DNA from: a virus
Direction: 5' to 3' (one strand)
Virus record (IMG/VR): IMGVR_UViG_3300017593_000751
Coordinates: 1-64,000 of that record
DNA: 64,000 nt
Position numbers and translations under genes: made by a program. Positions within the stretch are counted from its first letter, which is position 1. Each line of letters starts with the position of its first letter. The notes below the pieces were generated by a model, which did no database searches, had not been told where the DNA came from, and saw nothing but the letters and a program-made list of their open reading frames with translations. Below are positions 32,973 through 51,689 of this stretch, piece by piece.

Positions 32973-33527
32973 ATGACCCCCGAACAAGAGTTGGAGTATA
33001 ATCAGCTTCAGTCTTGCCTCCATATCAATCTTCACGGCCTTCACGAAGACGCCCAAGGCCAGCCGGAGTTGGCTTTCCGGGCTGGCGAATTGGCCGCCGA
33101 GTTGAAGGCCGCGGCCAAACGCGCCAAGTTGAACTATGAAGAGGTGGCGGCTAGCGTGGAGATGGAGGTAAGGAGCGGCCCTGAGGATTTCGGGCTGAAG
33201 AAGGTTACGGAGTCCACTATCGCCTCTGTGGTCACGAAGCATCCCGACGTTTTATCGGCCCGCAAGGCCCAGATAGAAGCGGAACGGGACGCGGACTTGG
33301 CCGCGGCCCTGGCCAATGCCTTTGAGCATCGCCGCTCCATGCTCAAGTCGGAGGTGGAGTTGTATGTAAACAACTATTGGGGCGATGTAGAAGTGAAAGA
33401 ACGAGACATGCGAAGGAACGAAACGGCTTCGCGGGTAAAGGCAGCTGAAGATAAAGAGGCCGAAATTGAAGCCAAGCGGCGGGAACGGCGGGGAGTGAAA
33501 CGGAGGCGGAAGGGGGTGACTGAATGA
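32973..33527 (+). CDS. UvsY-like recombination mediator
   Basis: Helical, KVTESTI...AFEHRRSML; between SSB and RecA. Confidence 0.6.
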   Translation: MTPEQELEYNQLQSCLHINLHGLHEDAQGQPELAFRAGELAAELKAAAKRAKLNYEEVAASVEMEVRSGPEDFGLKKVTESTIASVVTKHPDVLSARKAQIEAERDADLAAALANAFEHRRSMLKSEVELYVNNYWGDVEVKERDMRRNETASRVKAAEDKEAEIEAKRRERRGVKRRRKGVTE

Positions 33528-34699
33528 AAAGACGAAGGTCGGCAAAACAGGCAAGGGGAACGGCGGAGAGCCTTCATCGCCAGGACTTGCCGCCCTGCCG
33601 GTATTTTCTGAGCACAGGCTCAACTCTGCTGGACTTGGCCATTTCCGACCGCTACCCCGGCGGTGTAGGCTCCGGCCGGACCACGCAGATTATCGGCGAC
33701 CACTCCACCGCCAAGACCGTCATCGTCAAGGAGATTTTAGGGGCTGCCCAACGGCTGGGCGGCTACGCGGTGGAAGAGGACGCGGAATACACGCCGGACT
33801 TTCTGCGGGCGGAACTGTTCGGCCTCCACGTGGGCAAATGGGCGGATGAGGCCGTACAGGCCGAGGCCCGCAACATGCCCATATATGAGGCTGTTCGCAT
33901 CGAGAAGGACTATTGCTACCGCAACCCCGAAAGCATAGAGGCCGTATTCGACGAAGAGATTGGCCCACTTTGTCAACTGGTGGAGGGGCGATTGGGCGAG
34001 GGGGCGAAGGCCAAGCAGGTTGAGCCTTTGCCCAAGCCCTTGGCTATCGGCGTGGACACCTTCACGGCCCTGCCCAGCAGGACAGAGAAGGGCGAAGCCT
34101 TGGACGAAAGGAGCTATCGGGCGGAGAGGGCCAAGCGCATGAGTGCTGGCTTCCGCAAGTGGCTGGCCCCTATGGCCCGGAACGATGTGGCCTTGATAGC
34201 CGTGGACCACATCAGAGACAATATCGGCGTCATGTTCGGCCCGAAATGGACCACCAGCGGCGGCAAGGCCCTTCAGCAATACGCCAGCACGCGCATCTTT
34301 CTCGCGCAGGCCGGCGATTTGAAGAACCGGGCAGGTAGGACAGTAGGGGTGAAAATCAAGGCCAAGGTGGTCAAAAACAAGATAGCGCCGCCGGGACGGG
34401 AGACCTTCTTTTATGTACTGTTTGATTATGGAATAGACGACATCCGGGGCAACTTGGAATGGCTGGCCGAGCAGGCCCAGGCCGGAATTGAAACAGCGCT
34501 GGGGAAGTCGGGGGCCTGGTGGTCCTGGCGAGGCGAAAAGCTGGGCCAAGGAATAGAGGGGGCCATCGAGGCCGTGGAGAGGGCCGGATTGGAAAAGGAG
34601 CTGGAGGCCGAGGTGGCGCGGGTCTGGCAAGTGGTCTATGAAGGCCCGGGGAGGGCGAGGAAAAGACGGCATGGCCAAGAGGCGCAAGAAGAAGTCTAA
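33524..34699 (+). CDS. recA: RecA/UvsX-like recombinase
   Basis: STGSTLLDLAI, GDHSTAKT, DAE, TTSGGKALQQYASTRI, VVKNKIAPP. Confidence 0.9.
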   Translation: MKRRRSAKQARGTAESLHRQDLPPCRYFLSTGSTLLDLAISDRYPGGVGSGRTTQIIGDHSTAKTVIVKEILGAAQRLGGYAVEEDAEYTPDFLRAELFGLHVGKWADEAVQAEARNMPIYEAVRIEKDYCYRNPESIEAVFDEEIGPLCQLVEGRLGEGAKAKQVEPLPKPLAIGVDTFTALPSRTEKGEALDERSYRAERAKRMSAGFRKWLAPMARNDVALIAVDHIRDNIGVMFGPKWTTSGGKALQQYASTRIFLAQAGDLKNRAGRTVGVKIKAKVVKNKIAPPGRETFFYVLFDYGIDDIRGNLEWLAEQAQAGIETALGKSGAWWSWRGEKLGQGIEGAIEAVERAGLEKELEAEVARVWQVVYEGPGRARKRRHGQEAQEEV

Positions 34700-35084
34700 G
34701 CTTCAAAGGGCCAAGGAAAATCCTGCCTCTAGATACTGGCGGAACAAGGCGGATGAGGCTTGGAGAAAGGCGGTCTTGACAAGGGATGGTTATCGTTGCG
34801 TTGTTTGCGGGACAGACCGCAATCTTCAGGTCCATCATCTGTTTAGTAGAGGCCGGGCGGATACACGGCACGAAGTTTCAAACGGGATAACGTTGTGCTC
34901 AGCGCATCATAAGTGGAGTCGGGAGATTAGCCCTCATAAGGGACCGGTGGCTTTCTTTCTGTGGCTCCAGAAGAACCGTCCTGACCAATGGGAATGGCTG
35001 AAAAAACATGTAGCTGAACCTGAAAATTACAAGCCTGATTTTCGGGAGACATATAATAGACTGAGGGCAAACGAAGATGGGTAG
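34671..35084 (+). CDS. HNH endonuclease (NinG-like)
   Basis: RDGYRCVVCG..LQVHHL..NGITLCSAHH. Confidence 0.85.
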   Translation: MAKRRKKKSKLQRAKENPASRYWRNKADEAWRKAVLTRDGYRCVVCGTDRNLQVHHLFSRGRADTRHEVSNGITLCSAHHKWSREISPHKGPVAFFLWLQKNRPDQWEWLKKHVAEPENYKPDFRETYNRLRANEDG

Positions 35085-35242
35085 TGGGTCAAGAATGAAA
35101 TCACCTCGTTTTTCGTGGGCCACCCGGAGCGTTGCCCCTCCCATCTTAGTAGAAACAAGCGGGTTTGTGGGCCAGGGTCAGAATCGCCCCGTCTTTTGTG
35201 GGTCATAAAGAGCATCGCCCCAATCCGAGGAATAATAGTTTC

Positions 35243-35335
35243 GGTCAGGTAAGGCATGGTCAGGTGAGGTTGGGCGGGGTATGGTGAGGCAAGGTCGGGT
35301 CCGGTGTGGTGTGGTAAGGTGAGGTAAGGTTTGGC
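35243..35335 (+). repeat. GGY-NN pentamer array (19 GGY units), candidate guide-like ncRNA
   Basis: GG at every 5th position, always followed by a pyrimidine, with variable NN. Confidence 0.9.
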
Positions 35336-35336
35336 G

Positions 35337-35486
35337 ATGAAAGAAGCTATCCTGAAAAGGCAAGGTTGGACCGTCATCAGACTGCATTGGCGAGACATAG
35401 AACAAGATGTTCAAGCTTGTGTAGATAAGATTTTGGCGGCAATTCCAGCGAAGTCTGCGTATAATAGACTGGTCGGCAAAGATTGA
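35337..35486 (+). pseudogene. C-terminal remnant of DUF559/Vsr-like endonuclease
   Basis: LKRQGWTVIRLHWRDIEQDVQACVDKIL; catalytic N-terminal part absent. Confidence 0.6.
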
Positions 35487-35497
35487 AAACCAAAGAT

Positions 35498-35637
35498 TGC
35501 CCGCCTGAGGCGCGGGGAGCGCCTCGTTGGCAGCCTGTGCTGGCTCAATATTGGCCGGTCCCAATCGGAGAGGGTAGGCGGCGACGCGACGCCGAACGGC
35601 GGCGGCAGCCCGGCTGGGGAAACCGGGCAGGCGGGCA
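35498..35637 (+). ncRNA. structured element A (multibranch, CUGGGGAAA loop)
   Basis: 10-bp closing stem TGCCCGCCTG/CAGGCGGGCA; 6-bp stem with 5-nt loop; CCCGG-CTGGGGAAA-CCGGG. Confidence 0.65.
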
Positions 35638-35657
35638 TGACATTGACAACCGAAGAT

Positions 35658-35805
35658 TGCCCGTCCGGGGCACGGCAGGTGCCCGGTGGCGCTGCCCGAG
35701 GCCACAGAGGCCCGAACTGCCTGCCGCGAGAGTGAAGCAATGCTGCCCGCTCGAGCGCGGCATTGCGGGCAGGGGACTCGGCTGGGGAAACCGAGCGGAT
35801 GGACA
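35658..35805 (+). ncRNA. structured element B (paralogue of A)
   Basis: TGCCCGTCCG/CGGATGGACA; GGGCAC/GTGCCC; CTCGG-CTGGGGAAA-CCGAG; same ATTGAMAACCRAAGAT leader as A. Confidence 0.65.
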
Positions 35806-35826
35806 CAAGATAAGAGGAGACAGACA

Positions 35827-36078
35827 ATGGCGAAGGCCAAAACTGACCTTGAGGCGGTTCGGATTTTGTTGGCACAATGCCTTGAATGGGAATTGTACCG
35901 GCACAAAAGCAAGGGATATGCGTGCGGCATCAAACACAAAGGTGAATGGCTTTATGCTTGCGGTCGTCAATTGAGGTTTGCAATCGCCGCCGCTTTGGAC
36001 GCGGCGGGGCTGAATCCGGGCGGGCAAGCGAAGGAGAGGATGAATGGCAACGGAGAAATCATTAGTAGAAAAGCTTAA
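35827..36078 (+). CDS. small alpha-beta3-alpha protein
   Basis: LLAQCLEWELYRHKSKGYACGI...YACGRQLRFAIAAAL; GAGGAG RBS. Confidence 0.65.
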   Translation: MAKAKTDLEAVRILLAQCLEWELYRHKSKGYACGIKHKGEWLYACGRQLRFAIAAALDAAGLNPGGQAKERMNGNGEIISRKA

Positions 36079-36316
36079 GGTCATCTCTAAAGACTACGAC
36101 CGGCTTAGAGAAGTCCTGACCGCTCGCGTCGATGGTATGAACGAAAAGAACACTATTGGTCGGTTTGAAGATTCGGGTGTGTTGAGGATTGAAACCATTA
36201 TTTCGGGCGCCACTGTGTATCTCTCTGAGACCGGTCAAGCCCAGCTTGTCCGCTTCATCTGCCGTGCGCGGGGCTGGCAAGTTCCGCCGGAAATTGTGGA
36301 GGAGGAGGAGAAATGA
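36044..36316 (+). CDS. hypothetical protein
   Basis: RBS; operon context. Confidence 0.5.
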   Translation: MATEKSLVEKLKVISKDYDRLREVLTARVDGMNEKNTIGRFEDSGVLRIETIISGATVYLSETGQAQLVRFICRARGWQVPPEIVEEEEK

Positions 36317-36519
36317 CTTGGTTCATCCTCGCTGCCTTGGTGTACCTCGTCGGCTTCGTCGTGGCCTTCGTCCTGACCGTCGGAGAGGACTTCGGATGGA
36401 AGGATGCCGCCCTGTTCGCGTTGTGGTGGCCGATAGTGGCAGCGGTCTTGATTGTGTTGTTCGTAGATGAAACCATAAGACAAGTATGCAGCAAACGGCG
36501 GAAGGAGAACAACCGATGA
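36313..36519 (+). CDS. small two-TM membrane protein
   Basis: Hydrophobic, ALWWP motif; ATGA-coupled. Confidence 0.6.
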   Translation: MTWFILAALVYLVGFVVAFVLTVGEDFGWKDAALFALWWPIVAAVLIVLFVDETIRQVCSKRRKENNR

Positions 36520-36752
36520 CAAAGCAAACAGAGCGAATAAATACGTTTGGCTTGTTGGCCCAACTCCGGCGGATGAACACAGAATGGCACTTGGGGTATA
36601 GTCCGCGAGAGGGCCATTATTGCCACGTCTGGCTCCCGGCGGCGCTCGGCGGAAACTATTTGGCGTCGGGCCGAGACAAAATCATGGGCAGGGCAATCAA
36701 GCAAGCTCTTGTCGAAGTAGAACGCATCAGGCAGGCGGAAACAGGAGGATAA
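36516..36752 (+). CDS. small alpha-beta3-alpha protein
   Basis: NTFGLLAQLRRMNTEWHLGY..HYCHVW...MGRAIKQAL; close paralogue of 37942. Confidence 0.65.
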   Translation: MTKQTERINTFGLLAQLRRMNTEWHLGYSPREGHYCHVWLPAALGGNYLASGRDKIMGRAIKQALVEVERIRQAETGG

Positions 36753-36755
36753 CCA

Positions 36756-36905
36756 ATGACCAGGCCAGCAAGGAACGGAAGCGGTCGCGGACGTGGCCAG
36801 CCCGGCGGAGGACGCCGGGGCAGGAACACCGGCCCATGCCGCCGAGGTGGCCCCGGCTACGGTCGAGGCGGCGGTCGTGGTAAGGGTACCGGAAGGCAAG
36901 GATAG
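36756..36905 (+). CDS. Gly/Arg (RGG)-rich 49-aa peptide
   Basis: Own translation MTRPARNGSGRGRGQPGGGRRGRNTGPCRRGGPGYGRGGGRGKGTGRQG; AGGAGG RBS. Confidence 0.65.
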   Translation: MTRPARNGSGRGRGQPGGGRRGRNTGPCRRGGPGYGRGGGRGKGTGRQG

Positions 36906-36970
36906 GTATCATCCGAGGCCACGTGGCCTTTGCCCTGAACGCCTCGCCTGCGGGCGACGGCTAGGGGCAA

Positions 36971-37079
36971 GCCCGCCCGGATTGATTGACGTGGAAGAGT
37001 GCAGGGCGCGGCGGCGGGAGGAATCACCGACCGCCAAAACGCCCACGGGAACCGCCGAGGGGTAAGGCGGCGGGCGGGC
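36971..37079 (+). ncRNA. structured element C
   Basis: GCCCGCCCG/CGGGCGGGC closing stem; CCGCC-GAGGGGTAA-GGCGG. Confidence 0.6.
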
Positions 37080-37107
37080 AAGGCAGGACGGAAAGGAGAC
37101 TACAAAA

Positions 37108-37566
37108 ATGACAAGAGTATCAGACTTCTTTAGATGGTGGCAGGCGCTTGACCAATGCCTGCCCGACGGTTGGTGTCTGAGGGCGGGCATCAATGGGGAC
37201 GACGGCCATTGGTTTTACACATGCTGCGCCAAGCCGCAATTGACTCGCCCTATCGCAACATGCGCTGGCAGCCCTGTTGAAGCGGCCAATAAGGCCGTCT
37301 GGGCGTCTCAACAGGAAGAAACTTGGTGGGAGGCACTCAGCCGCCTTTTCCCTGACGGATGGTGTATTTCAAGGTACATCACTTCACAAAACGACGTACT
37401 CTACGGATTCGCTGATTTCCGCTATTACCCGGCGCAGACCACCAGTGGCCGCACGCCCGCTGAGGCCATAATTGGCGCGATTGACGCGCGAATTGATGAG
37501 CTGAAACAAGAGAAGGAATGCCGGGAGGCCCGAGAGATTGCCAGGAAAATAGCTAGGTGGCTGTAA
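37108..37566 (+). CDS. tandem alpha-beta3-alpha protein
   Basis: Two internal repeats WW.AL....PDGWC.....G.(S/T)P.EA...A. Confidence 0.7.
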   Translation: MTRVSDFFRWWQALDQCLPDGWCLRAGINGDDGHWFYTCCAKPQLTRPIATCAGSPVEAANKAVWASQQEETWWEALSRLFPDGWCISRYITSQNDVLYGFADFRYYPAQTTSGRTPAEAIIGAIDARIDELKQEKECREAREIARKIARWL

Positions 37567-37577
37567 CCAAAGGCAAC

Positions 37578-37649
37578 CCCGCCCGGACGTAAGGGAAGAG
37601 GCGGTTGCTAGCGCCGCGGGAGTCCCCGAGGGGTACGGGGACGGGCGGG
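37578..37649 (+). ncRNA. structured element D (72 nt, tRNA-sized, non-canonical)
   Basis: CCCGCCCG/CGGGCGGG; GCGGT-TGCTAGC-GCCGC; TCCCC-GAGGGGTAC-GGGGA. Confidence 0.6.
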
Positions 37650-37726
37650 AATGGGCTGAATGGCCGGAGGTATAGACGATGGCGAGAGGCAGCCCAATGC
37701 ATCAATCTATTGAAAGGAGGACAGCA

Positions 37727-37942
37727 ATGCCTGATGTTCAAACGAACTTAGCCGTGGCCAAAGAGGGCCTTTCGCAGGCGTTATACAAAACGCACAAAGC
37801 ATCGGAATGGATGTCTGGAAGAGTGCGAAGCTATCGGGTCGCCCTTGACGCGGTGAGCGAGGCCTTCCGGGCAGCAGAAACAGCGATGATAGCTTTAGGC
37901 CAAGTTCGGAAAGTTTTGCAAACAGTGAGTAAGGATAAATAA
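37727..37942 (+). CDS. hypothetical helical protein
   Basis: AAGGAGG RBS. Confidence 0.55.
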   Translation: MPDVQTNLAVAKEGLSQALYKTHKASEWMSGRVRSYRVALDAVSEAFRAAETAMIALGQVRKVLQTVSKDK

Positions 37943-38247
37943 TGGCCAAAAGACCAAACACGCTGAATCTACTGGCCAAGCTAAGACGGGAGCACGAGTT
38001 TTGGGAGCTCTACCGCGTCTTTTCCCGTTACTTCTGCCGCATTTGGGAAAGTGGCCGCGTATTTAAAGGTCATGGCGATTTGATGGGCGAGGCGATTCAG
38101 GAGGCGTTGGAAGGGGTGAAATCCTGGCGGGGGTGCGCAGAACAATCAGGGAACTCGCGGCGCAAAACGGCGAAAACAGCTCGCCGAGCGGACCAACGGC
38201 GGTATGAGAAAACAAGGAAGGGGACGAAAACAAAGACGAAGGAGTAG
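37942..38247 (+). CDS. small alpha-beta3-alpha protein
   Basis: NTLNLLAKLRREHEFWELYR..YFCRIW..FKGHGDLMGEAIQEAL. Confidence 0.65.
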   Translation: MAKRPNTLNLLAKLRREHEFWELYRVFSRYFCRIWESGRVFKGHGDLMGEAIQEALEGVKSWRGCAEQSGNSRRKTAKTARRADQRRYEKTRKGTKTKTKE

Positions 38248-38250
38248 AAG

Positions 38251-38559
38251 ATGTCAGACAAAAACAAAGACCGCCAAATGACGGGCGAAGAAATGCTACG
38301 AGCGGTTGGTTGGGTCAAGCAATCGCAGGTAACTGAAAATCTGCATTGCGGTCAGCTTGCTTGCGAGTTTTGCCAAGGGCGAGGCTATGTGTACTCTATG
38401 CCGGATTCCGCCTACGAAGTCTTGGCAAAGGTGGCGGAGAGGTCTTGGGGCGACGCGGAGGTTTTATTGAACCGCCAGCGCTCCACTTCCGTTCTTGTTT
38501 GTCCTCGTTGTTTAGGCAAAGGGTGGACCAAGGCGGCGAAAATAGAGGAAAAGACATGA
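38251..38559 (+). CDS. DnaJ-type zinc-finger protein
   Basis: CEFCQGRG...CPRCLGKG. Confidence 0.65.
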   Translation: MSDKNKDRQMTGEEMLRAVGWVKQSQVTENLHCGQLACEFCQGRGYVYSMPDSAYEVLAKVAERSWGDAEVLLNRQRSTSVLVCPRCLGKGWTKAAKIEEKT

Positions 38560-38876
38560 AACCAATCCGCCAATGGTGCCAGGAAATCACGCGGTGGCGG
38601 GAACGGAAAGGTTTCCGAACCCCGCAATCGCTGGCCCCCGGCGAACGCGAGTTGATGCTGGGCAAGCTGATGCTGGTAGTTTCAGAACTGGCCGAGGCCG
38701 CCGAAGCCGTGCGGGACGGCGACCGCGCCAATTTCGCGGAGGAATTGGCGGATACGGCCATTAGGCTCTTTGATATTTGCGGGGCCTGCGAGATAGATTT
38801 GGAAACGGAGATTAAGGCCAAGATGAAGAAGAACGAATCCCGCCCGACAAGGCATGGGCGGGGGAGTGCTTTGTGA
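38556..38876 (+). CDS. mazG: MazG-like nucleotide pyrophosphohydrolase
   Basis: LMLVVSELAEAAEAVR...EELADTAIRLFD...KMKKNESRP..HG. Confidence 0.85.
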   Translation: MKPIRQWCQEITRWRERKGFRTPQSLAPGERELMLGKLMLVVSELAEAAEAVRDGDRANFAEELADTAIRLFDICGACEIDLETEIKAKMKKNESRPTRHGRGSAL

Positions 38877-39979
38877 TGCTTGAAAGCCTATACATCCGAA
38901 ACTTCCAATCCCACGCTGATACTCTTGTTGAGTTCTCGCCCGGAGTAACGGTTATCGTAGGTTCTTCCAACGCGGGCAAGACCGCCATACTCCGCGCCCT
39001 GCGGTGGCTGGCGACCAATCGCCCCACCGGTCCCGGTATCGTTCGTAAAGGCAACGATGATAATTGCCGCGTCGTTCTTCGGTTGGATGACGGCACGAAG
39101 ATAGAACGCGCCCGCACGACGAAGAGTGCTGGCCATTATTCCTTGGTGCTCCCCGGCCGGAAGATGGTTCAATTTGAGGCCATGAAAGGGGCGGTTCCGG
39201 AGGCTGTGACTGATTCGCTGAACCTGGGCGAGTTGAACGTCCAGGCCCAAACCGCCGGGTTGTTCCTGGTATTGGACAGCCCCGGCAAGATAGCCCGGGC
39301 ATTGAACGATGCCGTGCATTTGGACGAGGCGGAGGCCGCCGCTTCGGCCGCTCAGGCCAGGGTTCGGCGATTGTCCGCCGAGAAGGCGGCGGAGCAAGGC
39401 CGGGCTGCGGAGCTGGACCGCGAGTTGGCCGTCTTCGCCAAGCTGCCTGATTATGAAGTTGGTGTGCGAAAGGCCGAAGAGCTAACTTCCCGCCTCCAAG
39501 AGCTAAAAACGAAGCTGGAAGGGCTGCGGGGATTGCTTCAAGACATCCGCGAGGTTTCCGAGGCCATTGAAAGAACGGCTCCGCCGAAAGAGCTGAGGCC
39601 CGCCGTGGCCAAGGCGGAGAAAGTAGCCGAAGCGCTTTTAGATAAGCTGGACCAATGGGGGGCGTTGGACGAGCTGACGGTAGAGATAAAGAGAGTTTGG
39701 ATAGAATTGACAAGAGCAACCCCGCCGAAAGGATTGGCGGAGGCTATTGATTCCGCGACCAAGCTGGACCGGGCCTTGTCCCGCCTGGACCGTGAAGCTC
39801 AAAGCATAAACAGCTTGCTGGACCAGCTGGCGAGAACGGAAGAAGTCCTGGATGACGCCAAGGACGCGGCGGAAAGCGCTCGTGATGAATATAATAAAGT
39901 GCGGGCGGAACTGACTCATTGCCCGACTTGTGGGCAAGAGCTGGACGCTGCGGCAAAGGAAAGGATGCTGGCGAAATGA
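38873..39979 (+). CDS. sbcC: SbcC/Rad50-like ATPase, N-terminal half
   Basis: IRNFQSH, GSSNAGKTAILRAL, Q-loop, coiled coil, CPTCG zinc hook; no Walker B. Confidence 0.9.
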   Translation: MMLESLYIRNFQSHADTLVEFSPGVTVIVGSSNAGKTAILRALRWLATNRPTGPGIVRKGNDDNCRVVLRLDDGTKIERARTTKSAGHYSLVLPGRKMVQFEAMKGAVPEAVTDSLNLGELNVQAQTAGLFLVLDSPGKIARALNDAVHLDEAEAAASAAQARVRRLSAEKAAEQGRAAELDRELAVFAKLPDYEVGVRKAEELTSRLQELKTKLEGLRGLLQDIREVSEAIERTAPPKELRPAVAKAEKVAEALLDKLDQWGALDELTVEIKRVWIELTRATPPKGLAEAIDSATKLDRALSRLDREAQSINSLLDQLARTEEVLDDAKDAAESARDEYNKVRAELTHCPTCGQELDAAAKERMLAK

Positions 39980-40974
39980 AGCTGCTTATCACAGGGGATT
40001 GGCACTTGAGAGCCTCTCGCCCGGAGAGGCGGACGGAAGAGGACTTCGCCGCCGTGTGCTTGGGCAAGGTGAATCAGGTCTTGGATATAGCGGAGAGGGA
40101 AGAGTGCAGATTGATAATTCAACCCGGCGACTTCTTCCACACGCCCAGACCAAGCGGAGAATTGGTGGTCGGGTTGATGGTATTGTTGAAACAACATGAT
40201 TTTCTCAGGCGGGCCGACCTATTGACAATACATGGCCAGCACGACTTGGCCTATCATTCAAAGGCCGCTCGTGAGAGTAGTATGTTGCGGATATTGGACG
40301 TCGGGGGGCTTTTGTGGCTTCTTGATTACCGGGAAGTGGACGAAAAGAAGGGCAATAATAATCTGATTGAAGATTTCACAGTGAGCACCGTAACGACGGA
40401 AGTATGCATCCGCGGCGCGGGTTGGGGGCAAGAACCCCCACCTCCGCCAGAAGAACATTACGATTGCAAGGTTCTAGTAGCCCACGCAATGGTGGGCGAC
40501 AAGAAGCTTTGGCCTAGCCAGGAATTGACCGGCCCCGCTGATTGGGTTCGGAAGCATCCCGGCTATGACCTTTATGTGTTGGGCGACTATCACTACCCTT
40601 TCATGGAGAAGGTAGGCGACGCGCTCGTAGTCAATGCTGGCGTCCTGATTCGTCAACAATACTCGGAGCGCGAATTGAATCACCGCCCTCAGGTGGTGGC
40701 GTACGATACGGAGACTCGAAAGACCAAGACGATATATCTGGACGTGGCCCCTGCGGAGAAGGCTTTCTCTCCGCCTTCGGCCAGGTCGGAAAAGGCCGAA
40801 CAGTTCGAAGAGTTCACGCGACGTTTGCAAGAACAGGGCAAGGTCGGCGTGGACTTCGAGAGCAACCTGCAAGCCTTCTTGGAGGCGTACGAAACCCCGC
40901 CAAAGGTCCGCGAGGCCGTCTGGCAGGCCGTGAAAGAGGCGAAAGAAACGAAGGAGACTAGACGTGGCGGATAG
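39976..40974 (+). CDS. sbcD: SbcD/Mre11 metallophosphoesterase nuclease
   Basis: GDWH, PGDFFH, GQHD, AHAM, GDYH, NAG. Confidence 0.9.
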   Translation: MKLLITGDWHLRASRPERRTEEDFAAVCLGKVNQVLDIAEREECRLIIQPGDFFHTPRPSGELVVGLMVLLKQHDFLRRADLLTIHGQHDLAYHSKAARESSMLRILDVGGLLWLLDYREVDEKKGNNNLIEDFTVSTVTTEVCIRGAGWGQEPPPPPEEHYDCKVLVAHAMVGDKKLWPSQELTGPADWVRKHPGYDLYVLGDYHYPFMEKVGDALVVNAGVLIRQQYSERELNHRPQVVAYDTETRKTKTIYLDVAPAEKAFSPPSARSEKAEQFEEFTRRLQEQGKVGVDFESNLQAFLEAYETPPKVREAVWQAVKEAKETKETRRGG

Positions 40975-41251: not shown

Positions 41252-41453
41252 ATGTCCGAAGTGCGGTGAAACTAATATAGATGCTACTTTTACTTGGGGC
41301 GGGGAGTACGAATGCCCCAAATGTGGGGAGGAATGGCAAATTGATTTGGTGGAGCTGGCCGCTCAGGCCACAAGGGCCTTGGTAAATATAGACCATTCCT
41401 TGGTTCAATTGAACCGGAACCTGCAAGCCTTGTTGCGAAAAATTGACCACTGA
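41241..41453 (+). CDS. small zinc-ribbon protein
   Basis: CPKCG...CPKCG. Confidence 0.65.
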   Translation: MRLRCPKCGETNIDATFTWGGEYECPKCGEEWQIDLVELAAQATRALVNIDHSLVQLNRNLQALLRKIDH

Positions 41454-42082
41454 TGTCTGTTGAGCTAATATCTCGCGTGGAGGCCCACAAGACCAGATTG
41501 GCCGAGATGAAGGCCGTTTACGGTCGATTGAAGGCCATGCGGGGCGAGGCTGTCAAACGGGCTTCGGACTTGGCCCGTCAGGAGAAAGACGCTGAGGCCG
41601 CCCATTCCATCATCGTTGAGGTTTTGAGGGCCACTCAAGAAGAAACGGTAGGCTTGGTCAATGAGCTGGTCTCTTTGGCCTTGGCCGCCGTCTATGGGCC
41701 GGAATACTCTTTTGAGCTGGAGTTCTCCATCCGCCGCAACCAAAGCGAGGCCACTCCTTGGGTACTTCGGAACGGCGAAAGGTTCAGTCCGCGAGAAGAG
41801 GTCGGAGGCGGCATATTGGATATATGCTCTCTGGCCTTGAGGCTGGCCTTGTGGAGCCTGAAGGTTCCGCGGACCGCCCCTGTGTTCATTCTGGACGAAC
41901 CGGCCAAGTGGCTTTCGGCGGACAAGCAGGCAGCCTTCGGCAGGCTGCTGAAAGAAGTAAGTGAAAAGCTGGGGGTGCAAATCATCGTGGTTTCGCACTC
42001 TCGCGGTATAATAGAGTGTGGCGACAAGACGTATGAGGTCAGGATAGAAAAGGGAATCAGTCAAGTGGAGTTGGTCAAGTGA
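41453..42082 (+). CDS. sbcC: SbcC/Rad50-like ATPase, C-terminal half
   Basis: VGGGILDI signature variant, FILDEP Walker B, VVSH H-loop. Confidence 0.85.
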   Translation: MSVELISRVEAHKTRLAEMKAVYGRLKAMRGEAVKRASDLARQEKDAEAAHSIIVEVLRATQEETVGLVNELVSLALAAVYGPEYSFELEFSIRRNQSEATPWVLRNGERFSPREEVGGGILDICSLALRLALWSLKVPRTAPVFILDEPAKWLSADKQAAFGRLLKEVSEKLGVQIIVVSHSRGIIECGDKTYEVRIEKGISQVELVK

Positions 42083-42927: not shown

Positions 42928-43406
42928 TAGCTCTACTCGTTTTGGTAGGCTGTCGGCCCCAAACGGACGTAAAGGCAGATACGCACGTGGACGTGCAGCC
43001 TCCGCGTGTGGAGGTCAAGCCGGGCGCAATCACCGCCACCATGCCCGTGGAAGCTACGGCGTTCAAGCGGAACGAATCTTTGAACCAGGACCAGACCACC
43101 GGGGGCTGGGGCATAAACATCGGCAAGGTGGAGATAGACGGGCTGTCCCTGGCCCTGGTACTCCTATTGGCCGGTATTTGCCTTCTCTTGTATGGCAGGC
43201 ACAGAAAGGCGATGACCACGGTGGACATGTTCGTAAAGGCCGTTGAAGAGACCGTTGAAGAAAACGAAGAAAGCTCGCGGCTCCCGGAAAAGCTTCGCCT
43301 CATGGCCCTGAGCCGGGGCGTGGAAGGCTTCTTGCGTTCCCGCATCCGCAAGGTCCGCAAGGTCCGTAAGGCTGATAAGACTGACAAGAGAAAGGAAAGC
43401 AAATGA
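42864..43406 (+). CDS. lipoprotein with additional TM segment (lysis/spanin-like candidate)
   Basis: LVGC lipobox, second hydrophobic helix. Confidence 0.55.
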   Translation: MGSFGNSFKSGCFAAGLVVGLVALLVLVGCRPQTDVKADTHVDVQPPRVEVKPGAITATMPVEATAFKRNESLNQDQTTGGWGINIGKVEIDGLSLALVLLLAGICLLLYGRHRKAMTTVDMFVKAVEETVEENEESSRLPEKLRLMALSRGVEGFLRSRIRKVRKVRKADKTDKRKESK

Positions 43407-44290
43407 AGGTTCTAGTAGCCGGACCATACGTGGGCGAATTGGGCTGGGAGCTGTTCAGCTGGCAGCCGATGGTCCGCCGCGTTTGGCTGGACAATAAGCC
43501 GGACAAAACCATCGTGTACACGCGCCCGGGCCGGCGGTTGTTCTATCGCTTCGCTGACGAAGTGCGAGACCAAAAGCTGCCCGACCACGAAGCTGAATGC
43601 CTAGCTTGGCACGACTTGGACAAGTATATGGATGAGTTTACCGGGGCTATCAGGGCCGTCCAGGAGCAGGCCAAACAGGAGTTCAAGGGCCACAACATAG
43701 TGTTCTTCGGCTATCCTGCCTTGAAACAGTTGAACCGGCCCTACTACGCCCAAGGCGCGCCGGACTTGCTGTACGGTGAGCAGAAGCGGGCGGAGGAATT
43801 GCTGGCCGAACATAATAACGTGGTGGTCCTGTGTGTGCGGGATAGGGCCATGAGTGATTATCGCAACTGGCCTTACGAAGAGTGGGCGGCACTGGGGCGG
43901 TATTTAGCCGCTGGCGGTTGGTCGGTGGTGTATCTGGGGCGAATCCGCGACATGGTGAGGTGGAATGTGTTGATGAGCGGGGTCTTGACTTCGCCCCAAC
44001 GCGAGGGAGTGGTCATAGACCTGACCAACCGAACCTCTTTAGACGATTGCTTGTCTGTGATGAGCAGGGCCAGGCTCGCGGTAGGCGGTTCTTCCGGCCT
44101 GCTTCACTTGGCCAGTCGATGCGGGCTGGACCATCTGGTTTGGGGTGCCCCTTCCGCCCGTTCTCGATACGCTGAAACCAACTGGTTCGGTGCCCACTTC
44201 AAGTTCTTGTCTGTGGGTTGGCAACCTAAGTGGGAAGATATAGCTTCCGAAGCGGAGCATTATCTGGAAAAAGGAGCCTTCCGGCCATGA
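43403..44290 (+). CDS. glycosyltransferase, GT9-like
   Basis: RNWPYEEW, DLTNRTSL, AVGGSSGLLHLA. Confidence 0.8.
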   Translation: MKVLVAGPYVGELGWELFSWQPMVRRVWLDNKPDKTIVYTRPGRRLFYRFADEVRDQKLPDHEAECLAWHDLDKYMDEFTGAIRAVQEQAKQEFKGHNIVFFGYPALKQLNRPYYAQGAPDLLYGEQKRAEELLAEHNNVVVLCVRDRAMSDYRNWPYEEWAALGRYLAAGGWSVVYLGRIRDMVRWNVLMSGVLTSPQREGVVIDLTNRTSLDDCLSVMSRARLAVGGSSGLLHLASRCGLDHLVWGAPSARSRYAETNWFGAHFKFLSVGWQPKWEDIASEAEHYLEKGAFRP

Positions 44291-45051
44291 AGAAGGCCAG
44301 GGTACTCATAACGTTTGATGATGGTTTGTATAGTCATAGATTGGCGGCGGAAGCCTTGGCGGAGCGTGGACTGAGAGGGGCGTTCGCCGTGATAACGTCC
44401 CGCATAGGTCGGCCCGGAGCGCTGACTGGCTTGGACGTTTTGAACATGGCCCATCAGGGGCATTTCATCTGCAATCATTCCGCCCGCCACAAGTGGGCTG
44501 GCAGGGGAGAGCCTAAGCCGGGCCGAAAGGCTTATTCCAGGGCGGAAATAACCAAGGATTATCTGGAGGGATTGCGTTGGGGGCGGAAGCTGGCCGAATC
44601 CGATAGCGTGCCTGCCAATGTCCGCGATAATATCCGCATGGACTATCTGTGCGTTCCTTACGGTACGGCCAACGTGTTCGGGCCGGAGCATTTGCGGGAA
44701 CTGCTGGGCCATTTCCGTTGGATACGCCTGACCGTGGGGGCACCGAACCCTGCTGACAAGGCTAGCTGGATAGCGGAGGGGGGCAAGCGCATCTATCCCG
44801 GCGACTATCGCGGGCCGGTCATCGGCATTTCCGCCGCCGCGGATGCTCGATATCCTGACCGCATCAGGGAGACCTTGGAAACGGCGATAAAGGTTGGGGG
44901 GTTGGCGGTGTTGTTATATCATGATGTAGCTCATATATTGGGCAGGGGACAAGACGTCACTTGGGAGCAATTTGAGTCCGACTTGGACTTTATGAAGGAA
45001 CGAAAAGAGGCGGGACTGTTGGAAACCGTCTTGCCGCCCGATATACGATGA
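44287..45051 (+). CDS. polysaccharide deacetylase (NodB/CE4)
   Basis: ITFDDG, NHSARH, PYG, LLYH. Confidence 0.85.
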   Translation: MKKARVLITFDDGLYSHRLAAEALAERGLRGAFAVITSRIGRPGALTGLDVLNMAHQGHFICNHSARHKWAGRGEPKPGRKAYSRAEITKDYLEGLRWGRKLAESDSVPANVRDNIRMDYLCVPYGTANVFGPEHLRELLGHFRWIRLTVGAPNPADKASWIAEGGKRIYPGDYRGPVIGISAAADARYPDRIRETLETAIKVGGLAVLLYHDVAHILGRGQDVTWEQFESDLDFMKERKEAGLLETVLPPDIR

Positions 45052-45143
45052 GTCATAGAACAGCACACAACAAGAGCCGTCGTAGGCGCAAGGTAGGCAG
45101 AAAGAAGCGCAGGGCCAGAAGGAAAGCGAAAGGGAAGCCATGA
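45048..45143 (+). CDS. 31-aa highly basic peptide
   Basis: MSHRTAHNKSRRRRKVGRKKRRARRKAKGKP; ATGA overlaps at both ends. Confidence 0.65.
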   Translation: MSHRTAHNKSRRRRKVGRKKRRARRKAKGKP

Positions 45144-45919
45144 TATATGCTCTAGCTATTTCAACTCGCGGAGAGGAACGAATCAACTTATTGAGGACTT
45201 GGCTGCCCTCTTTGCTTCGCCAAACGCTCAAGCCTGATTTGATTTTGCTGGTGAACAACAACGACGCCATATCGGACATGGACTTGTTGAACATGGTATC
45301 AAAGGACCATCGCCCGCGTCTGCCCATAGAGGTCAGGAGCAACGTGGACCGCACGCCCAGCGACGCCGCAGGTTCGCAGCTGGCCTTGGAGGTTCTTGGC
45401 GAAGCCTATCCCGTCATCGTCAAATGGGATGATGATTTGGTGCCTATGGTGGACGATTGCATGGAGAGGTTGGTTTCGTTGGTTTACGCGGGCTTCGCCG
45501 CAGCCGGGGGGATGTACTATCGGCTGCTGGACAAAGCCAGGTCGTTGATGGGGCCGAACGGTCCTGCCTCTGGCGACAAGAACGATAATCATCTTCAGTT
45601 CTTCCGGTGGTCCGGTCATCATACGTTGATTCGCAGAAGGCACCTGTATTCGTCCTTCGCCTACGATGCTCGGCTCGCCCGCGAAATCGGCGGGTTCTGC
45701 GTAGAGTATTCACAGCTCAGCTATCGTCACGAAACGGACTTCACCCTTCGTTTGAATAAAGCTCGGCCCGGTTTGGTGGTGGATACCGCGGCGGAGGCTT
45801 TACACTTGGTGGCCCAAGGTGGGGTCCGCGAGTTCTCGCGGGCTTGTTACCAGGAAATGGCCAAAAAGGACCAGGCCCTCTTTCAAAAACGAATGAAGGC
45901 CGAAGGAATCAAGGTATAG
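45140..45919 (+). CDS. glycosyltransferase, GT2-like
   Basis: QTLKPD, WDDD, IGGF...ETDFTLRL. Confidence 0.85.
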   Translation: MIYALAISTRGEERINLLRTWLPSLLRQTLKPDLILLVNNNDAISDMDLLNMVSKDHRPRLPIEVRSNVDRTPSDAAGSQLALEVLGEAYPVIVKWDDDLVPMVDDCMERLVSLVYAGFAAAGGMYYRLLDKARSLMGPNGPASGDKNDNHLQFFRWSGHHTLIRRRHLYSSFAYDARLAREIGGFCVEYSQLSYRHETDFTLRLNKARPGLVVDTAAEALHLVAQGGVREFSRACYQEMAKKDQALFQKRMKAEGIKV

Positions 45920-45928
45920 GAGACCACG

Positions 45929-47038
45929 ATGTATCTAGCCGTGTTGGTCAGTCCGGAGAACCCTTGCCCACCTACCGCCTACGGAGGGGCGGAGCGGCGG
46001 GCGGCCATTATCGTGGAACGGCTTTTAGAGCAAGGCCATGCTGTGGATTTGTACTGCGGGCCGAACAGCCGACAACACGCCACGCGGCGGTTCTTGGCGT
46101 CGTCGCCTTCTATGAGCAAACAAGAGGAATATCTACGGGAATTGTTTAGATTAAGCTGTCTAAACTTCCGCTACGATTGCTGCATTGACTTAACGCCTCA
46201 TCATATAGTTAGCTCCCTCGGCTGCCCCCCTTACCTTTCCTCGGCTGACTTGGAAAAGCCTTATCCCGTTGTCAGCATCATGGGCGGGGACCCGCTGAAG
46301 AAGTATCCGCACGATGAGGTTCGTAACCGCGTCTATGTCAGTAGAGAGTTCGCCGAGTTCTGCGGCTGTCCGGACCATCCGGTGCTTCATAACGTGGTTC
46401 ACCCCGCTCCCGAGGCTATTCCCCTGGGCAAGGGCGGGGGCGGATATGCCCTATATGTGGGCGTGGTTCGCCCGGAGAAGGGCGTGTTAGAAGCTGAACG
46501 GGCTTGCGCTTCCGTAGGGATTCCGCTGAAGGTGGCGGGGCCGATTAGGGACTTTGATTACTGGGACCGCTTCCGCGACCGCGTGGAATATCTAGGGATA
46601 TTGCCGAACAACGATGAAGTCCGCAGCGAGGTGTTCGGCAAGGCGGACGTGTTCGTATATGCTCCGTTGTGGTGCGATGCTGGCCCCTTGGCCCCGATGG
46701 AAGCCATGCTTTACGGGACGCCCGTGGCCGGCTTCGCTGTGGGCGGATTGGCCAGTGATGTGGAGGACGGCGTGGGGGGCTGGCTGGTGAGGGAAGGAAT
46801 CTTCGCCGAGGCGAAGCTGATGGAAGGCCCTCCAAACGCCAACGTCCGTACCAAAGAGGCCACGCGGCTTGAAATGTCGGCTGAGACAATACAGAGGCTG
46901 GCCGACGCAATAGAAAAGGCTTTGTTGGTAGAAAGGAAAGGAGTAAGGGAGAGCATCTTGCCGAAGGTTGACCCGGAGCGGCATGTTGCCCAATTGATGC
47001 GGTTGGTGACCCGGGCCGCTAAAGGGGAGGAGTGGTAA
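45929..47038 (+). CDS. glycosyltransferase, GT4-like
   Basis: PP.AYGGAER, PEKG, PMEAM.YGTPV. Confidence 0.9.
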   Translation: MYLAVLVSPENPCPPTAYGGAERRAAIIVERLLEQGHAVDLYCGPNSRQHATRRFLASSPSMSKQEEYLRELFRLSCLNFRYDCCIDLTPHHIVSSLGCPPYLSSADLEKPYPVVSIMGGDPLKKYPHDEVRNRVYVSREFAEFCGCPDHPVLHNVVHPAPEAIPLGKGGGGYALYVGVVRPEKGVLEAERACASVGIPLKVAGPIRDFDYWDRFRDRVEYLGILPNNDEVRSEVFGKADVFVYAPLWCDAGPLAPMEAMLYGTPVAGFAVGGLASDVEDGVGGWLVREGIFAEAKLMEGPPNANVRTKEATRLEMSAETIQRLADAIEKALLVERKGVRESILPKVDPERHVAQLMRLVTRAAKGEEW

Positions 47039-47041
47039 TAC

Positions 47042-47884
47042 ATGGCAAAGACGATTTGGTTTACTGGGTTGCCCTGTTCAGGCAAAACGACCATTGCCAA
47101 GGCCCTTCAGAGACTAGTCGGCGGGTGTCTATTAGATGGGGATGAAGTAAGGCTCAGCCCTTTGAGCTTCGACGCCGACTTCTCGCCAGAAGGACGACGA
47201 AAACACCTAAGGCGAGTGGCCTATGTGGCCAAGCTATTGAACGACCACGGAGTCAACGTATTTGCTGCCTTTGTTTCACCTTCGGAATCCGTCCGCCAAG
47301 AGGTCCGAGATATTATTGGGGCTTCGCGGTTCCGGCTTGTGTATGTAAACACTCCAGCGGAGATTTGTGAACAGCGCGATACACGAGGGCTGTGGGCCAA
47401 GGCCCGGCGGGGTGAAATCAAAAACTTTACCGGCGTTGATGCCCCCTACGAAGCCCCGACCAAAAATATGAGGGAAGAAAACACGGAGAGATGTTCGGCG
47501 GAGGAAATAGCCAATAGGCTATATCACGTTTATTTTTATCCTTACCATCATCCCGCTTCTTTGTTCATAGGCCGCTTCCAGCCCTTCCATGAAGGGCACG
47601 AAAAGCTTATCCGGTCAGTGTTGGACGAAGGGCGGGACGTGGTGGTGGCCGTTCGTGATACAAGATTGGACGAAGACAACCCCTATACCGCGCAGGAACG
47701 CGTGGAAATGGTCAAAGAACGATTCGCCGCTGAGATATATCAGGAAAGGCTTCGCGTTATCGTCATGCCCGACATTGACGAAGTTTGTTACGGCAGGCGC
47801 GTGGGCTGGCGGGTAAGGGAGATTCGTCTGGACCCGGAGACAGAGGCCATTAGTGCCACAAAAATAAGGGAGAGACAGAAATGA
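47042..47884 (+). CDS. cysC: adenylyl-sulfate (APS) kinase fused to HIGH-type nucleotidyltransferase
   Basis: WFTGLPCSGKTT, LDGDEVR, FTGVDAPYEAP; then FIGRFQPFHEGH...DNPY...ISATKIR. Confidence 0.9.
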   Translation: MAKTIWFTGLPCSGKTTIAKALQRLVGGCLLDGDEVRLSPLSFDADFSPEGRRKHLRRVAYVAKLLNDHGVNVFAAFVSPSESVRQEVRDIIGASRFRLVYVNTPAEICEQRDTRGLWAKARRGEIKNFTGVDAPYEAPTKNMREENTERCSAEEIANRLYHVYFYPYHHPASLFIGRFQPFHEGHEKLIRSVLDEGRDVVVAVRDTRLDEDNPYTAQERVEMVKERFAAEIYQERLRVIVMPDIDEVCYGRRVGWRVREIRLDPETEAISATKIRERQK

Positions 47885-48645
47885 CTAGATATGCCTATTA
47901 CGTTTATCTGCCCGACCCGCGCCAACGATACGCCTTTGACGATGTAGGGACCAAAGCTCTCCGAAGTCTGTCTTTACACTGCCCCGGTACGGAAGTAGTT
48001 CTTCTTTGTTGGGAACCTCCTCCTTCGGCTTTGTTGGCTGCCTCAAAAGCTGGCAGAGCCACAACGATAATTTGGGGGTGGGACCGTAAACTGTTGATGG
48101 CGGAGAAAATAACGCGGCTGGCAGAGTTCCCTTGGAAAAAAGGCGATGAGGTTTTCGTGATAGATTTGGACGTGTTAGTGCAAGACAACCTGTTCGCGGC
48201 CTTCCATCAATATCCGGATGCTGACGTGTTCGTAACGACGCGGTTTTACGAATACGAGCATCCCATCAATGCAGGAGTGTGGGGGTTCCGTTTCAATGAC
48301 CGGACGAACGCCTTTTTAAAACATTACGCCGACCAAGCGTTTGACCCGACTTGGCCTCCTTTCCGGTCTTATCAAGAAAAGTTCGGACATCTGGAGGACC
48401 GGGGTTGGTGGTGTGACCAAGACTATTTGTGTGCTCTTTGGCGTGAGGTCAAAGCGAATCGGCCTACGCCCGGCGACGTTCGCATAGTGGATTTAGGGCC
48501 GAAATATAATTGGTGTCCTAGTCAACAAGACTTGGGGGGAACGAAAAAGGACATAGAAGATATCCTGAGTAAGGTAGGAAACAAAGAGTATAAAGCCCTC
48601 CATTTCAAGGGGGTAATCAAATGGATAATGCCAGACCCAAAGTAA
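47881..48645 (+). CDS. GT-A fold nucleotide-diphospho-sugar transferase
   Basis: IDLDV, INAGV, DQ, YNW, LHFKG. Confidence 0.8.
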   Translation: MTRYAYYVYLPDPRQRYAFDDVGTKALRSLSLHCPGTEVVLLCWEPPPSALLAASKAGRATTIIWGWDRKLLMAEKITRLAEFPWKKGDEVFVIDLDVLVQDNLFAAFHQYPDADVFVTTRFYEYEHPINAGVWGFRFNDRTNAFLKHYADQAFDPTWPPFRSYQEKFGHLEDRGWWCDQDYLCALWREVKANRPTPGDVRIVDLGPKYNWCPSQQDLGGTKKDIEDILSKVGNKEYKALHFKGVIKWIMPDPK

Positions 48646-50684: not shown

Positions 50685-50687
50685 CCA

Positions 50688-51134: not shown

Positions 51135-51190
51135 TTTGACGGTAACGGGTATTCCATGTTTTTGGTTTGGGACAAGGACGAGGAAAAAGA

Positions 51191-51679: not shown

Positions 51680-51689
51680 GGAGAAAGAC

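Follow-up and report, generated by a model that had tools for sequence, protein, structure and literature searches.

IMG/VR virus record IMGVR_UViG_3300017593_000751 is a linear contig of 73,277 bp with a CheckV completeness of 71%, and the window analysed here comprises its first 64,000 nucleotides. It is a tailed-phage contig with genes for the portal, large terminase, DNA polymerase, sliding clamps, helicases and tape-measure protein. Within its replication-recombination module, and in the same orientation as the neighbouring genes, lies the subject of this work: an uninterrupted array of pentanucleotide units of the form GGY-NN at 35243–35337 (+). The order of the module is clamp loader, two proteins of unknown function, recA, an HNH endonuclease gene, the array, an open reading frame (ORF) of 49–51 aa, approximately 3 kb of further sequence, mazG, sbcC and sbcD. 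The array resembles the guide RNAs (vrRNAs) of the VIPR systems of phages and is most likely a gene for such an RNA, one which would have stayed behind when the vipr effector gene was lost. The features needed to follow the argument are these:

33524–34699 (+): recA-like recombinase gene, the upstream synteny anchor (Pfam RecA, E 1.5e-31)
34638–35084 (+): HNH endonuclease gene between recA and the array (Pfam HNH_2, E 6.9e-7; matches to 26 PHROG families, most of which carry the annotation HNH endonuclease)
35084–35242 (+): leader of 159 nt between the HNH gene and the array, with four GTGGGYCA repeats and a -10-like AATAAT
35243–35312 (+): units 1–14 (GGY-NN) of the vrRNA-like array, the proposed guide portion, with NN read as NNx
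35313–35337 (+): units 15–19 of the array (GGTAA GGTGA GGTAA GGTTT GGCGA), the proposed 3' terminal units outside the guide
35337–35486 (+): ORF of 49–51 aa, a remnant of the C-terminal part of a DUF559/Vsr-like endonuclease (Pfam DUF559)
38873–40974 (+): sbcC-like and sbcD-like genes, the downstream synteny anchor (Pfam AAA_23/SMC_N and Metallophos)

The GGY-NN array

Units 1–14 read GGTCA GGTAA GGCAT GGTCA GGTGA GGTTG GGCGG GGTAT GGTGA GGCAA GGTCG GGTCC GGTGT GGTGT, and their NN positions spell CA AA AT CA GA TG GG AT GA AA CG CC GT GT. A preliminary description, made from the letters of the window, had noted an unbroken 19-unit array with GGY every 5 nt and had listed 18 dinucleotides. The list is exact for all 18, and the 19th unit, GGCGA, extends to 35337 (+), so that GGY recurs in 19/19 units without any departure from the period of 5. 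The scaffold is intact throughout, with G at 38/38 positions and a pyrimidine at 19/19 (15 T and 4 C). The variable positions hold 10 different dinucleotides in 19 units, and the entropy of the first 18 is 3.13 bits out of a possible 4. From the base composition of the genome, the probability of GGY is 0.039 and the number of 19-unit runs expected on both strands is approximately 2.5e-22. On both strands of the contig, this is the only run of GG at period 5 with at least five units, and all remaining period-5 GG runs have four.

The same description had called the array a fixed scaffold with a variable payload, and this stands up to analysis. At the array, Tandem Repeats Finder detects no period-5 repeat but only loose ones, with periods of 25 and 10 (75–92% matches), and since the NN positions are also varied, a slipped pentanucleotide microsatellite is rejected. 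A decaying microsatellite is unlikely because the scaffold positions show zero deviation. The argument that a period of 5 speaks against coding is likewise sound, as such a period has no codon register; minus-strand ORFs that overlap the array region run antisense to the HNH gene and were not taken as genes. The proposed alternative of a two-tier G-quadruplex gained no support. None appears in the ViennaRNA minimum-energy fold when G-quadruplexes are allowed, which is a plain hairpin structure at -15.1 kcal/mol, and the reading is insufficient because it leaves the pyrimidine at position 3 of all 19 units unexplained.

A CRISPR array was considered and rejected: the local repeat families consist of the 5-nt scaffold and two downstream copies of 160–170 nt, and no RAMP/Cas7 model matches. 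An Rfam search of the 64-kb window returned no family at its gathering score, and the three weak matches near the array (E 0.59–3.6) are not credible.

The architecture to which the preliminary description had pointed, in which a RAMP-like protein of phages reads the NN positions as a gapped DNA target, is a published one. According to the discovery preprint, VIPR systems, published in 2026, use GGY/NN vrRNAs that are read by the RAMP protein Vipr, a phage-borne minimal RAMP of approximately 195 aa; a vrRNA consists of at least four GGY/NN repeats followed by a tail, and in the VIPR code the NN bases pair with DNA while one target base is skipped per unit (bioRxiv 10.64898/2026.04.26.720920). 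Seven VIPR types are distinguished there, with very different array layouts, and some systems encode a single vrRNA. A structural preprint adds that the Vipr protomers hold the GGY bases (10.64898/2026.04.26.720927). The array has this grammar: an invariant GGY with two variable bases, at least four units, and hypervariable NN.

To place the array among natural ones, a control set of 80 Vipr loci, fetched with an alignment termed A2, was examined. At least one array of six or more units is present in 77 of the 80 loci. Seven of the 476 arrays have at least 17 units and perfect arrays reach 19, so that the 19 units seen here lie within the natural range. Imperfect units are found in 280 of the 476 by the caller used here. 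With two exceptions (474/476) the arrays lie on the vipr strand, and all 474 are found no farther than 805 nt upstream or 1,296 nt downstream of the gene; an array at least 35 kb from any vipr therefore departs from the usual layout. In addition, IMG/VR was scanned for eight GGT-NN units, which yielded 80 further loci, and a Vipr hidden Markov model (HMM) found Vipr in 24 of them. Among 21 GGT-scan loci without vipr within 2.5 kb, 13 proved on reading to be plain repeats of one 5-, 10- or 15-nt unit, which shows that varied NN is diagnostic and period-5 GGT by itself is not. Two loci, L208 and L191, have the appearance of true solo guides.

The search for vipr and the recA-downstream site

The VIPR reference set was built from two directions. 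The RecA protein was used to fetch 80 loci, of which L052 alone has arrays. A search with a 230-aa protein of this locus yields 2,439 relatives among representative sequences (E ≤0.001), and the family profile made from relatives of this protein matches PDB entry 36pp_D, 'SUSP1 Vipr protein', with E 9e-7. The genome of phage SUSP1 (L002) served as the second source. Its VIPR locus was found via its arrays, and the vipr gene lies at L002:28474–29061(-) and belongs to phrog_4652. The L052 protein aligns with SUSP1 Vipr over the thumb and the G-loop (E 2e-10). A 152-sequence Vipr HMM was then assembled from 150 representatives plus L052 and SUSP1; as a positive control, the HMM recovers Vipr in 80/80 control loci.

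The preliminary description had seen no RAMP gene in the window and had proposed a profile search of the full genome for RAMP/Cas7-like genes. Run on the whole contig, such searches found nothing, and the statement thus holds for the 73 kb as well as for the window. Against 827 six-frame segments of the contig, SUSP1 Vipr gave no match by phmmer (best E 2.5) and the 152-sequence HMM likewise reached only E 2.5. With hhalign, the best probability over all 224 contig segments of at least 120 aa was 3.9%. Searches by jackhmmer, started from each of three divergent Viprs, converged every time on one set of 108 Vipr sequences (from 27 of the 80 GGT-scan loci, all 80 A2 loci and SUSP1), with 0 matches in the contig, and a broadened Vipr HMM gave a best E of 0.84. 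The contig was also without a match to phrog_4652, to the Pfam models RAMPs and DevR, and to P0326, a metagenomic Vipr introduced below. A scan of 34600–38400 for a vipr remnant, reading through stop codons, scored no more than 0.5 bits. One candidate was suggested by a 'DWR' G-loop motif in the ORF at 49379–50098; it was rejected, as it sits among sugar/sulfate genes and has no similarity to Vipr.

A vrRNA gene normally stands beside vipr on the same strand; here the searches of all 73,277 bp brought up no homologue of Vipr. A third preprint applies the term solo to an array whose contig has no Vipr match, or whose nearest such match is more than 20 kb away (10.64898/2026.10.15.759431). The present array fits this description, being 35.2 kb and 37.9 kb from the ends of a contig that is an estimated 71% complete. 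The same source finds solo vrRNAs in satellites as well as in 346 VIPR-null phages of Enterobacteriaceae, lists host decoy sites, satellites, other vrRNAs and vipr as their target classes, and predicts that some of them target the vipr genes of rivals.

Gene order supplied the strongest structural argument. In locus L182, on the minus strand, the polymerase and clamp loader genes are followed by p184 and p388 and by recA; after three small genes comes vipr, with an array of 10 units before it and one of 12 units behind it, and then sbcC and sbcD. In the window the order is polymerase, clamp loader, p388, p184, recA, HNH, the array, approximately 3 kb, mazG, sbcC and sbcD. The order of p388 and p184 is swapped between the two, and the L182 homologues of the sbcC-like and sbcD-like genes match with E 1.3e-29 and 1.7e-7. 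In locus L243, recA is followed by a 24-unit GGT-type array that begins 1 base after the recA stop codon, then by a 104-aa DUF559 gene (E 4.5e-8) that begins 6 nt past the end of that array; a second array, of 12 units, and vipr come next. The 49–51-aa ORF of the window aligns with the C-terminus of this L243 DUF559 protein (13/31 identical, E 2e-6). In L052 the order is recA, one gene, arrays and vipr. The synteny with L182, L243 and L052 places the array where true vrRNA arrays stand in a VIPR site that recurs downstream of recA. At the nucleotide level, neither its flanks nor its 3' sequence has a blastn match in any fetched locus.

The array is read as a solo vrRNA because there is no vipr in 73 kb and because it occupies the recA-downstream place where relatives carry vipr. 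On the evidence of gene order, vipr would be absent from this usual site as a result of loss, rather than because it was never gained.

The predicted target and the competing explanations

The guide was scored over 18 NN units, that is 36 positions, with one target base skipped per unit (NNx). When the full pattern was scored over the GGT loci, the top matches fell inside vipr genes. Both strands of 109 vipr segments, 79,111 nt in all, were then searched, and the five best matches are in L222 (26/36), L209 (24), L291 (23), L293 (22) and L204 (21). All five are in frame on the sense strand, the base that is skipped being the one at the wobble position, and they fall at one homologous site in one Vipr clade. 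A score of 26/36 was reached by 0/1000 base-shuffled guides and 0/1000 guides with shuffled unit order. A gapped search at several spacings had been suggested in the preliminary description, and the part of it that succeeded is the published rule: a skip of 1 gives 26/36 (0/300 shuffles), or 22/28 for units 1–14 alone (0/300 shuffles), whereas skips of 0, 2 and 3 give maxima of 21, 22 and 21, which lie inside their nulls. Only a skip of 1 gives a signal. Searches for exact windows of the pattern produced chance-level matches or none, as described below.

Written as codons, the guide reads [HQ][NK][IM][HQ][DE][CW]G[IM][DE][NK]RPVV[NK][DE][NK][FL], and units 1–14 correspond to codon positions 1 and 2 of a conserved vipr stretch, H-K-I-Q-D-W-x-I-D-K-R-P-V-V. 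A test at the protein level used a separate protein database, which was searched with the L222 and L209 Viprs, and the best 120 of 752 matches were scored. Among the 120 listed, P0326 reads HKIQDWSIDKRPVVIQKA at the site and agrees in 14/18 codon classes (13 among the first 14). Shuffled guides reached no more than 10, and did so in 4/500 shuffles. A score of at least 8 is found in 93 of the 120 listed proteins, and 89 of these peak in bins that cover offsets 90–104. P0326 is a complete Vipr of 171 aa with a G-loop, encoded on one 9,263-nt contig. It is 25% identical to SUSP1 Vipr (tblastn, E 2e-7), and its nearest relatives from cultured phages are at most 33% identical. A region-restricted protein search with the L209 Vipr returned the query itself only.

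Other guide and target combinations gave no comparable signal. The best self-match in the phage's own contig, 24/36 at 63122–63174 (-) in the tape-measure gene, is below 80% and stands beside a null maximum of 23, and the guides of L243 and L182 score at the null level against this phage.

The 3' end of the array behaves differently from the guide portion. Units 15–18 do not fit the vipr site, with compatible fractions of 0.04, 0.0, 0.13 and 0.0 over the clade. In loci of the target clade, 9/11 arrays end in a GGTTT unit (5/5 in L222, 2/2 in L204, 2/3 in L293 and 0/1 in L209), and unit 18 here is GGTTT. Consequently, we infer that units 1–14 may be the guide and units 15–18 a terminal handle typical of the clade; such a handle would suit loading by the Vipr of the L222/P0326 clade.

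On balance, it appears somewhat probable that the array is a solo vrRNA which is loaded by the Vipr of a rival from the L222/P0326 clade and turned on that rival's own vipr gene. Here, the guide RNA would be made during infection, and the Vipr that loads it would come from a rival element of the target clade, either co-infecting or resident. The rival's Vipr would then be directed to the rival's own vipr gene, silencing it and thereby disarming the rival's VIPR system. The preliminary description had offered an orphan, an element acting in trans or one serving a different partner as options; an orphan that acts in trans is favoured, as the array occupies the vipr site of relatives and its code best matches the vipr of another clade.

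Several points weigh against this reading. The best DNA match, to the L222 vipr, is 26/36 (72%) and is below the 80% NN threshold of the authors of the VIPR work; at the P0326 site the DNA match would be 29–31/36, a figure derived from the protein residues alone. The test restricted to vipr was framed post hoc, after the first vipr matches had been seen, and its five sites count as one event because they are homologous and not independent. Exact 9-unit windows in IMG/VR (units 1–9, 10–18 and 5–13) gave 3, 2 and 2 chance-level matches, at 19–24/36. The exact window of units 5–14 had one match in metagenomes, 27/36 in an unrelated gene, and in 185,579 species genomes the windows of units 5–14 and 9–18 gave 0 and 0 matches. 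As exact windows require 9–10 perfect units in a row, targets with scattered mismatches are missed by them. In regard to the RNA, the sequence after the array has no homology in the fetched loci, no significant fold (z = 0.88) and no terminator, and a sigma-70 consensus scan of the leader found no promoter on the + strand. Finally, Vipr is very diverse, and the first HMM overlooked three true Viprs, in array-rich loci, until jackhmmer was used; the contig is linear and an estimated 71% complete, which makes a distal vipr possible.

The metagenomic match of 27/36 (L170:1561–1613) is in frame, in a gene that by eye resembles a sulfatase-modifying (formylglycine-generating) enzyme. It is taken as chance, since 20 of its positions were forced by the search pattern.

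Of the competing explanations, the one that survives best, although it is unlikely, is that the array is a relic: the leftover of a decayed VIPR locus, having no present function, whose match to vipr reflects the past role of the guide. A truncated DUF559 gene adjoins the array, there is no remnant of vipr, and no tail, terminator or promoter was recognised, all of which would be consistent with decay. On the other hand, 0/57 scaffold positions of the array are decayed, as compared with imperfect units in well over half of the arrays of intact loci (the 280 noted above). In addition, no variants of the array were found across four sequencing runs, a weak argument as these are from one study and probably from one population.

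A slightly less likely explanation is that the system is complete, its own vipr lying in the approximately 29% of the genome outside the contig, with the array serving as an ordinary or autoregulatory guide. The linear, incomplete contig and the existence of published systems with a single vrRNA (10.64898/2026.04.26.720920) would allow this. However, the 474 same-strand arrays of the control loci are all within 1,296 nt of vipr, while the contig ends here are 35 kb and 38 kb away, and the syntenic relatives have their vipr exactly at the site of the array. Moreover, the discovery paper reports no self-targeting at ≥80% (10.64898/2026.04.26.720920).

It is improbable, and a little more so, that the array is a solo guide with another target, in which case the rival's Vipr would be sent, as a decoy or anti-satellite guide would do, to a site in a host, satellite or phage beyond the data searched, and the match to vipr would be fortuitous. 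Published solo vrRNAs do span several target classes (10.64898/2026.10.15.759431), and the best DNA match is only 72%. Against this, none of 1000 shuffled guides reaches the vipr score, the match appears at a skip of 1 only, in frame and at one homologous site, and the fit rises to 14/18 in an independent set of proteins.

Two further explanations are far weaker. It is very improbable that vipr has been replaced, such that the approximately 3 kb now at its position encodes an unrelated, non-RAMP partner that reads the GGY-NN array; what suggests this is the position of tandem structured RNAs at 35480–35815 and of small look-alike ORFs at 35827–38247. Scarcely credible is the last, that the array is no guide but a G-quadruplex, another structural DNA or RNA element or a pentanucleotide microsatellite: GG every 5 nt could in principle form two-tier G-quadruplexes, and 13/21 vipr-less GGT loci in IMG/VR are plain repeats, yet the 10 kinds of NN in 19 units, the pyrimidine at position 3 of every unit, the lack of a G-quadruplex in the ViennaRNA fold, the synteny with true vrRNA arrays and the gapped match to vipr all speak otherwise.

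If the array is a solo vrRNA aimed at a rival's vipr, its closest counterparts are the solo vrRNAs of the SUSP1 family (10.64898/2026.10.15.759431). Both have a GGY-NN array on a vipr-less contig, at the place where relatives carry vipr, with a predicted target in the coding sequence of a rival's vipr and with a Vipr that is presumably borrowed in trans. The differences are several. Those vrRNAs are from phages of Enterobacteriaceae, whereas this one is from an uncultivated hydrothermal-vent phage with a different replication module, and the Vipr clade targeted here is only ~25% identical to SUSP1 Vipr. The present array has 18–19 units, lacks a tail with a SUSP1-type pseudoknot and adjoins a DUF559 remnant instead of vap1. 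The VIPR-null phages of the SUSP1 family also show a clean 1,114-bp deletion, and no counterpart of it was found here.

Compared with canonical type II vrRNAs (SUSP1 and P. fulva; 10.64898/2026.04.26.720920 and 10.64898/2026.04.26.720927), the array is similarly GGY/NN, mostly GGT as in SUSP1, and phage-borne. A skip of 1 nt is the sole signal, and the match is in frame with the wobble base skipped, as reported there for natural targets. Canonical type II vrRNAs, however, have 9–16 units and a conserved, structured 3' tail and flank vipr-vap1, unlike the 19 units found here with no recognisable tail and no vipr or vap1. The standalone vrRNAs of satellites, as outlined in 10.64898/2026.10.15.759431, are also guide-only elements that exploit the Vipr of another element. 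They redirect Vipr to repetitive decoys in the host chromosome, whereas here the carrier is a full-size phage and the best match is vipr itself.

Phage CRISPR mini-arrays, solitary repeat units and RNA anti-CRISPRs are further examples of viral guide-like RNAs that come without an effector and use or jam the effector of others. Unlike the present array, they belong with a different effector family and have contiguous guides in a repeat-spacer arrangement; there is no CRISPR repeat here.

What would be new, judging from sequence comparison, is a VIPR-null solo vrRNA from an environmental phage lineage that points at a Vipr clade far from those studied. In the available text of the preprints, whose supplementary tables may list similar loci, solo vrRNAs directed against vipr are so far reported for phages of Enterobacteriaceae. 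If the present reading is true, an uncultivated phage from a vent, unrelated to those, employs the same tactic, and the Vipr clade it is directed against shares ~25% identity with the one studied. That would point to effector theft and guides against vipr as something common to VIPR conflicts in general, and the locus would represent a conserved site downstream of recA where VIPR loci come and go. The reading also supplies a testable pair, namely this guide and a Vipr of the L222/P0326 type, with a predicted footprint on the conserved stretch just upstream of the thumb.

Neighbouring genes and other observations

The stretch is listed in six DNA runs from three studies, none of which is on record as RNA. 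Four of the six runs hold at least half of the sampled words of the stretch; these are from a hydrothermal vent metagenome and belong to one study. Other contigs of the same four runs carry different GGY-NN arrays, which suggests that VIPR-type elements live in the vent community.

Upstream of the array, the HNH gene has no counterpart at the same place in L182 or L243 and is likely an inserted, homing-type endonuclease. In the leader, GTGGGYCA occurs at 35084, 35115, 35167 and 35198 (spacings of 31, 52 and 31), which accounts for 4/7 of its occurrences on both strands of the contig. These motifs are arranged as two similar modules of ~40 nt directly upstream of the array. The -10-like AATAAT lies at 35231–35236, 6 nt before the first GGY. 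From these motifs, it is possible that 35084–35242 is a promoter or operator region.

Downstream, the 49–51-aa ORF starts at the last base of the array and covers positions 73–108 of the 109 in the DUF559 profile. Its match to Pfam DUF559 (E 6.6e-4, 20.0 bits) is just below the cut-off of 20.6. The N-terminal part of DUF559 is absent in every frame upstream of this ORF, and the 49-aa ORF has no relatives in IMG/VR. Among 161 loci scanned, L243 (1673–2739) is the sole case in which a full DUF559/Vsr-like endonuclease gene sits between two vrRNA arrays, upstream of vipr.

The region 35480–35815 (+) holds two tandem copies of a GC-rich element of ~160–170 nt each, with conserved ends. Its hairpins apparently retain their pairing despite changes in both arms, with GAGGCGC/GCGCCTC versus GGGCAC/GTGCCC, and CCCGG/CCGGG versus CTCGG/CCGAG around a common CTGGGGAAA loop. 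The 3' motif CGGCTGGGGAAACCG occurs in the contig only in these two copies. The element belongs to no Rfam family, has a fold z-score of -1.8 and fills part of the space that holds vipr in relatives. It is followed, at 35827–38247 (+), by small ORFs (35827–36078, 36486–36752, 37108–37566, which has an internal duplication, and 37942–38247) that appear paralogue-like by eye. They have a common W/L...Y.C...G....AI..AL pattern, with no Pfam match and, for those scanned, no match in PHROGs.

The SbcC-like ATPase is apparently split into an N-terminal head at 38873–39979 (AAA_23, SMC_N 1–47) and a C-terminal piece at 41453–42082 (SMC_N 136–219), and the SbcD-like phosphoesterase at 39919–40974 (+) lies between the two pieces. 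Farther downstream, 43403–52265 (+) is a block of sugar/sulfate metabolism genes encoding a heptosyltransferase of GT9, a polysaccharide deacetylase, a GT1 enzyme, a nucleotide-sugar transferase, a methyltransferase and an APS kinase fused to a cytidylyltransferase-like domain.

Some of the VIPR loci fetched for comparison have features of their own. In L239:739–880, the tail after a 16-unit array beside vipr holds a GGTTCGATTCC stretch that resembles a tRNA T-arm. In the large Vipr clade of L091–L169 (e.g. L101:5694–5929 and L117:2156–2938), the units are mostly GGC-NN (3,589 of ~4,300), and successive vrRNAs abut without tails, parted only by a GGCAGGC phase shift. The L126 locus has 26 arrays by the caller used here.

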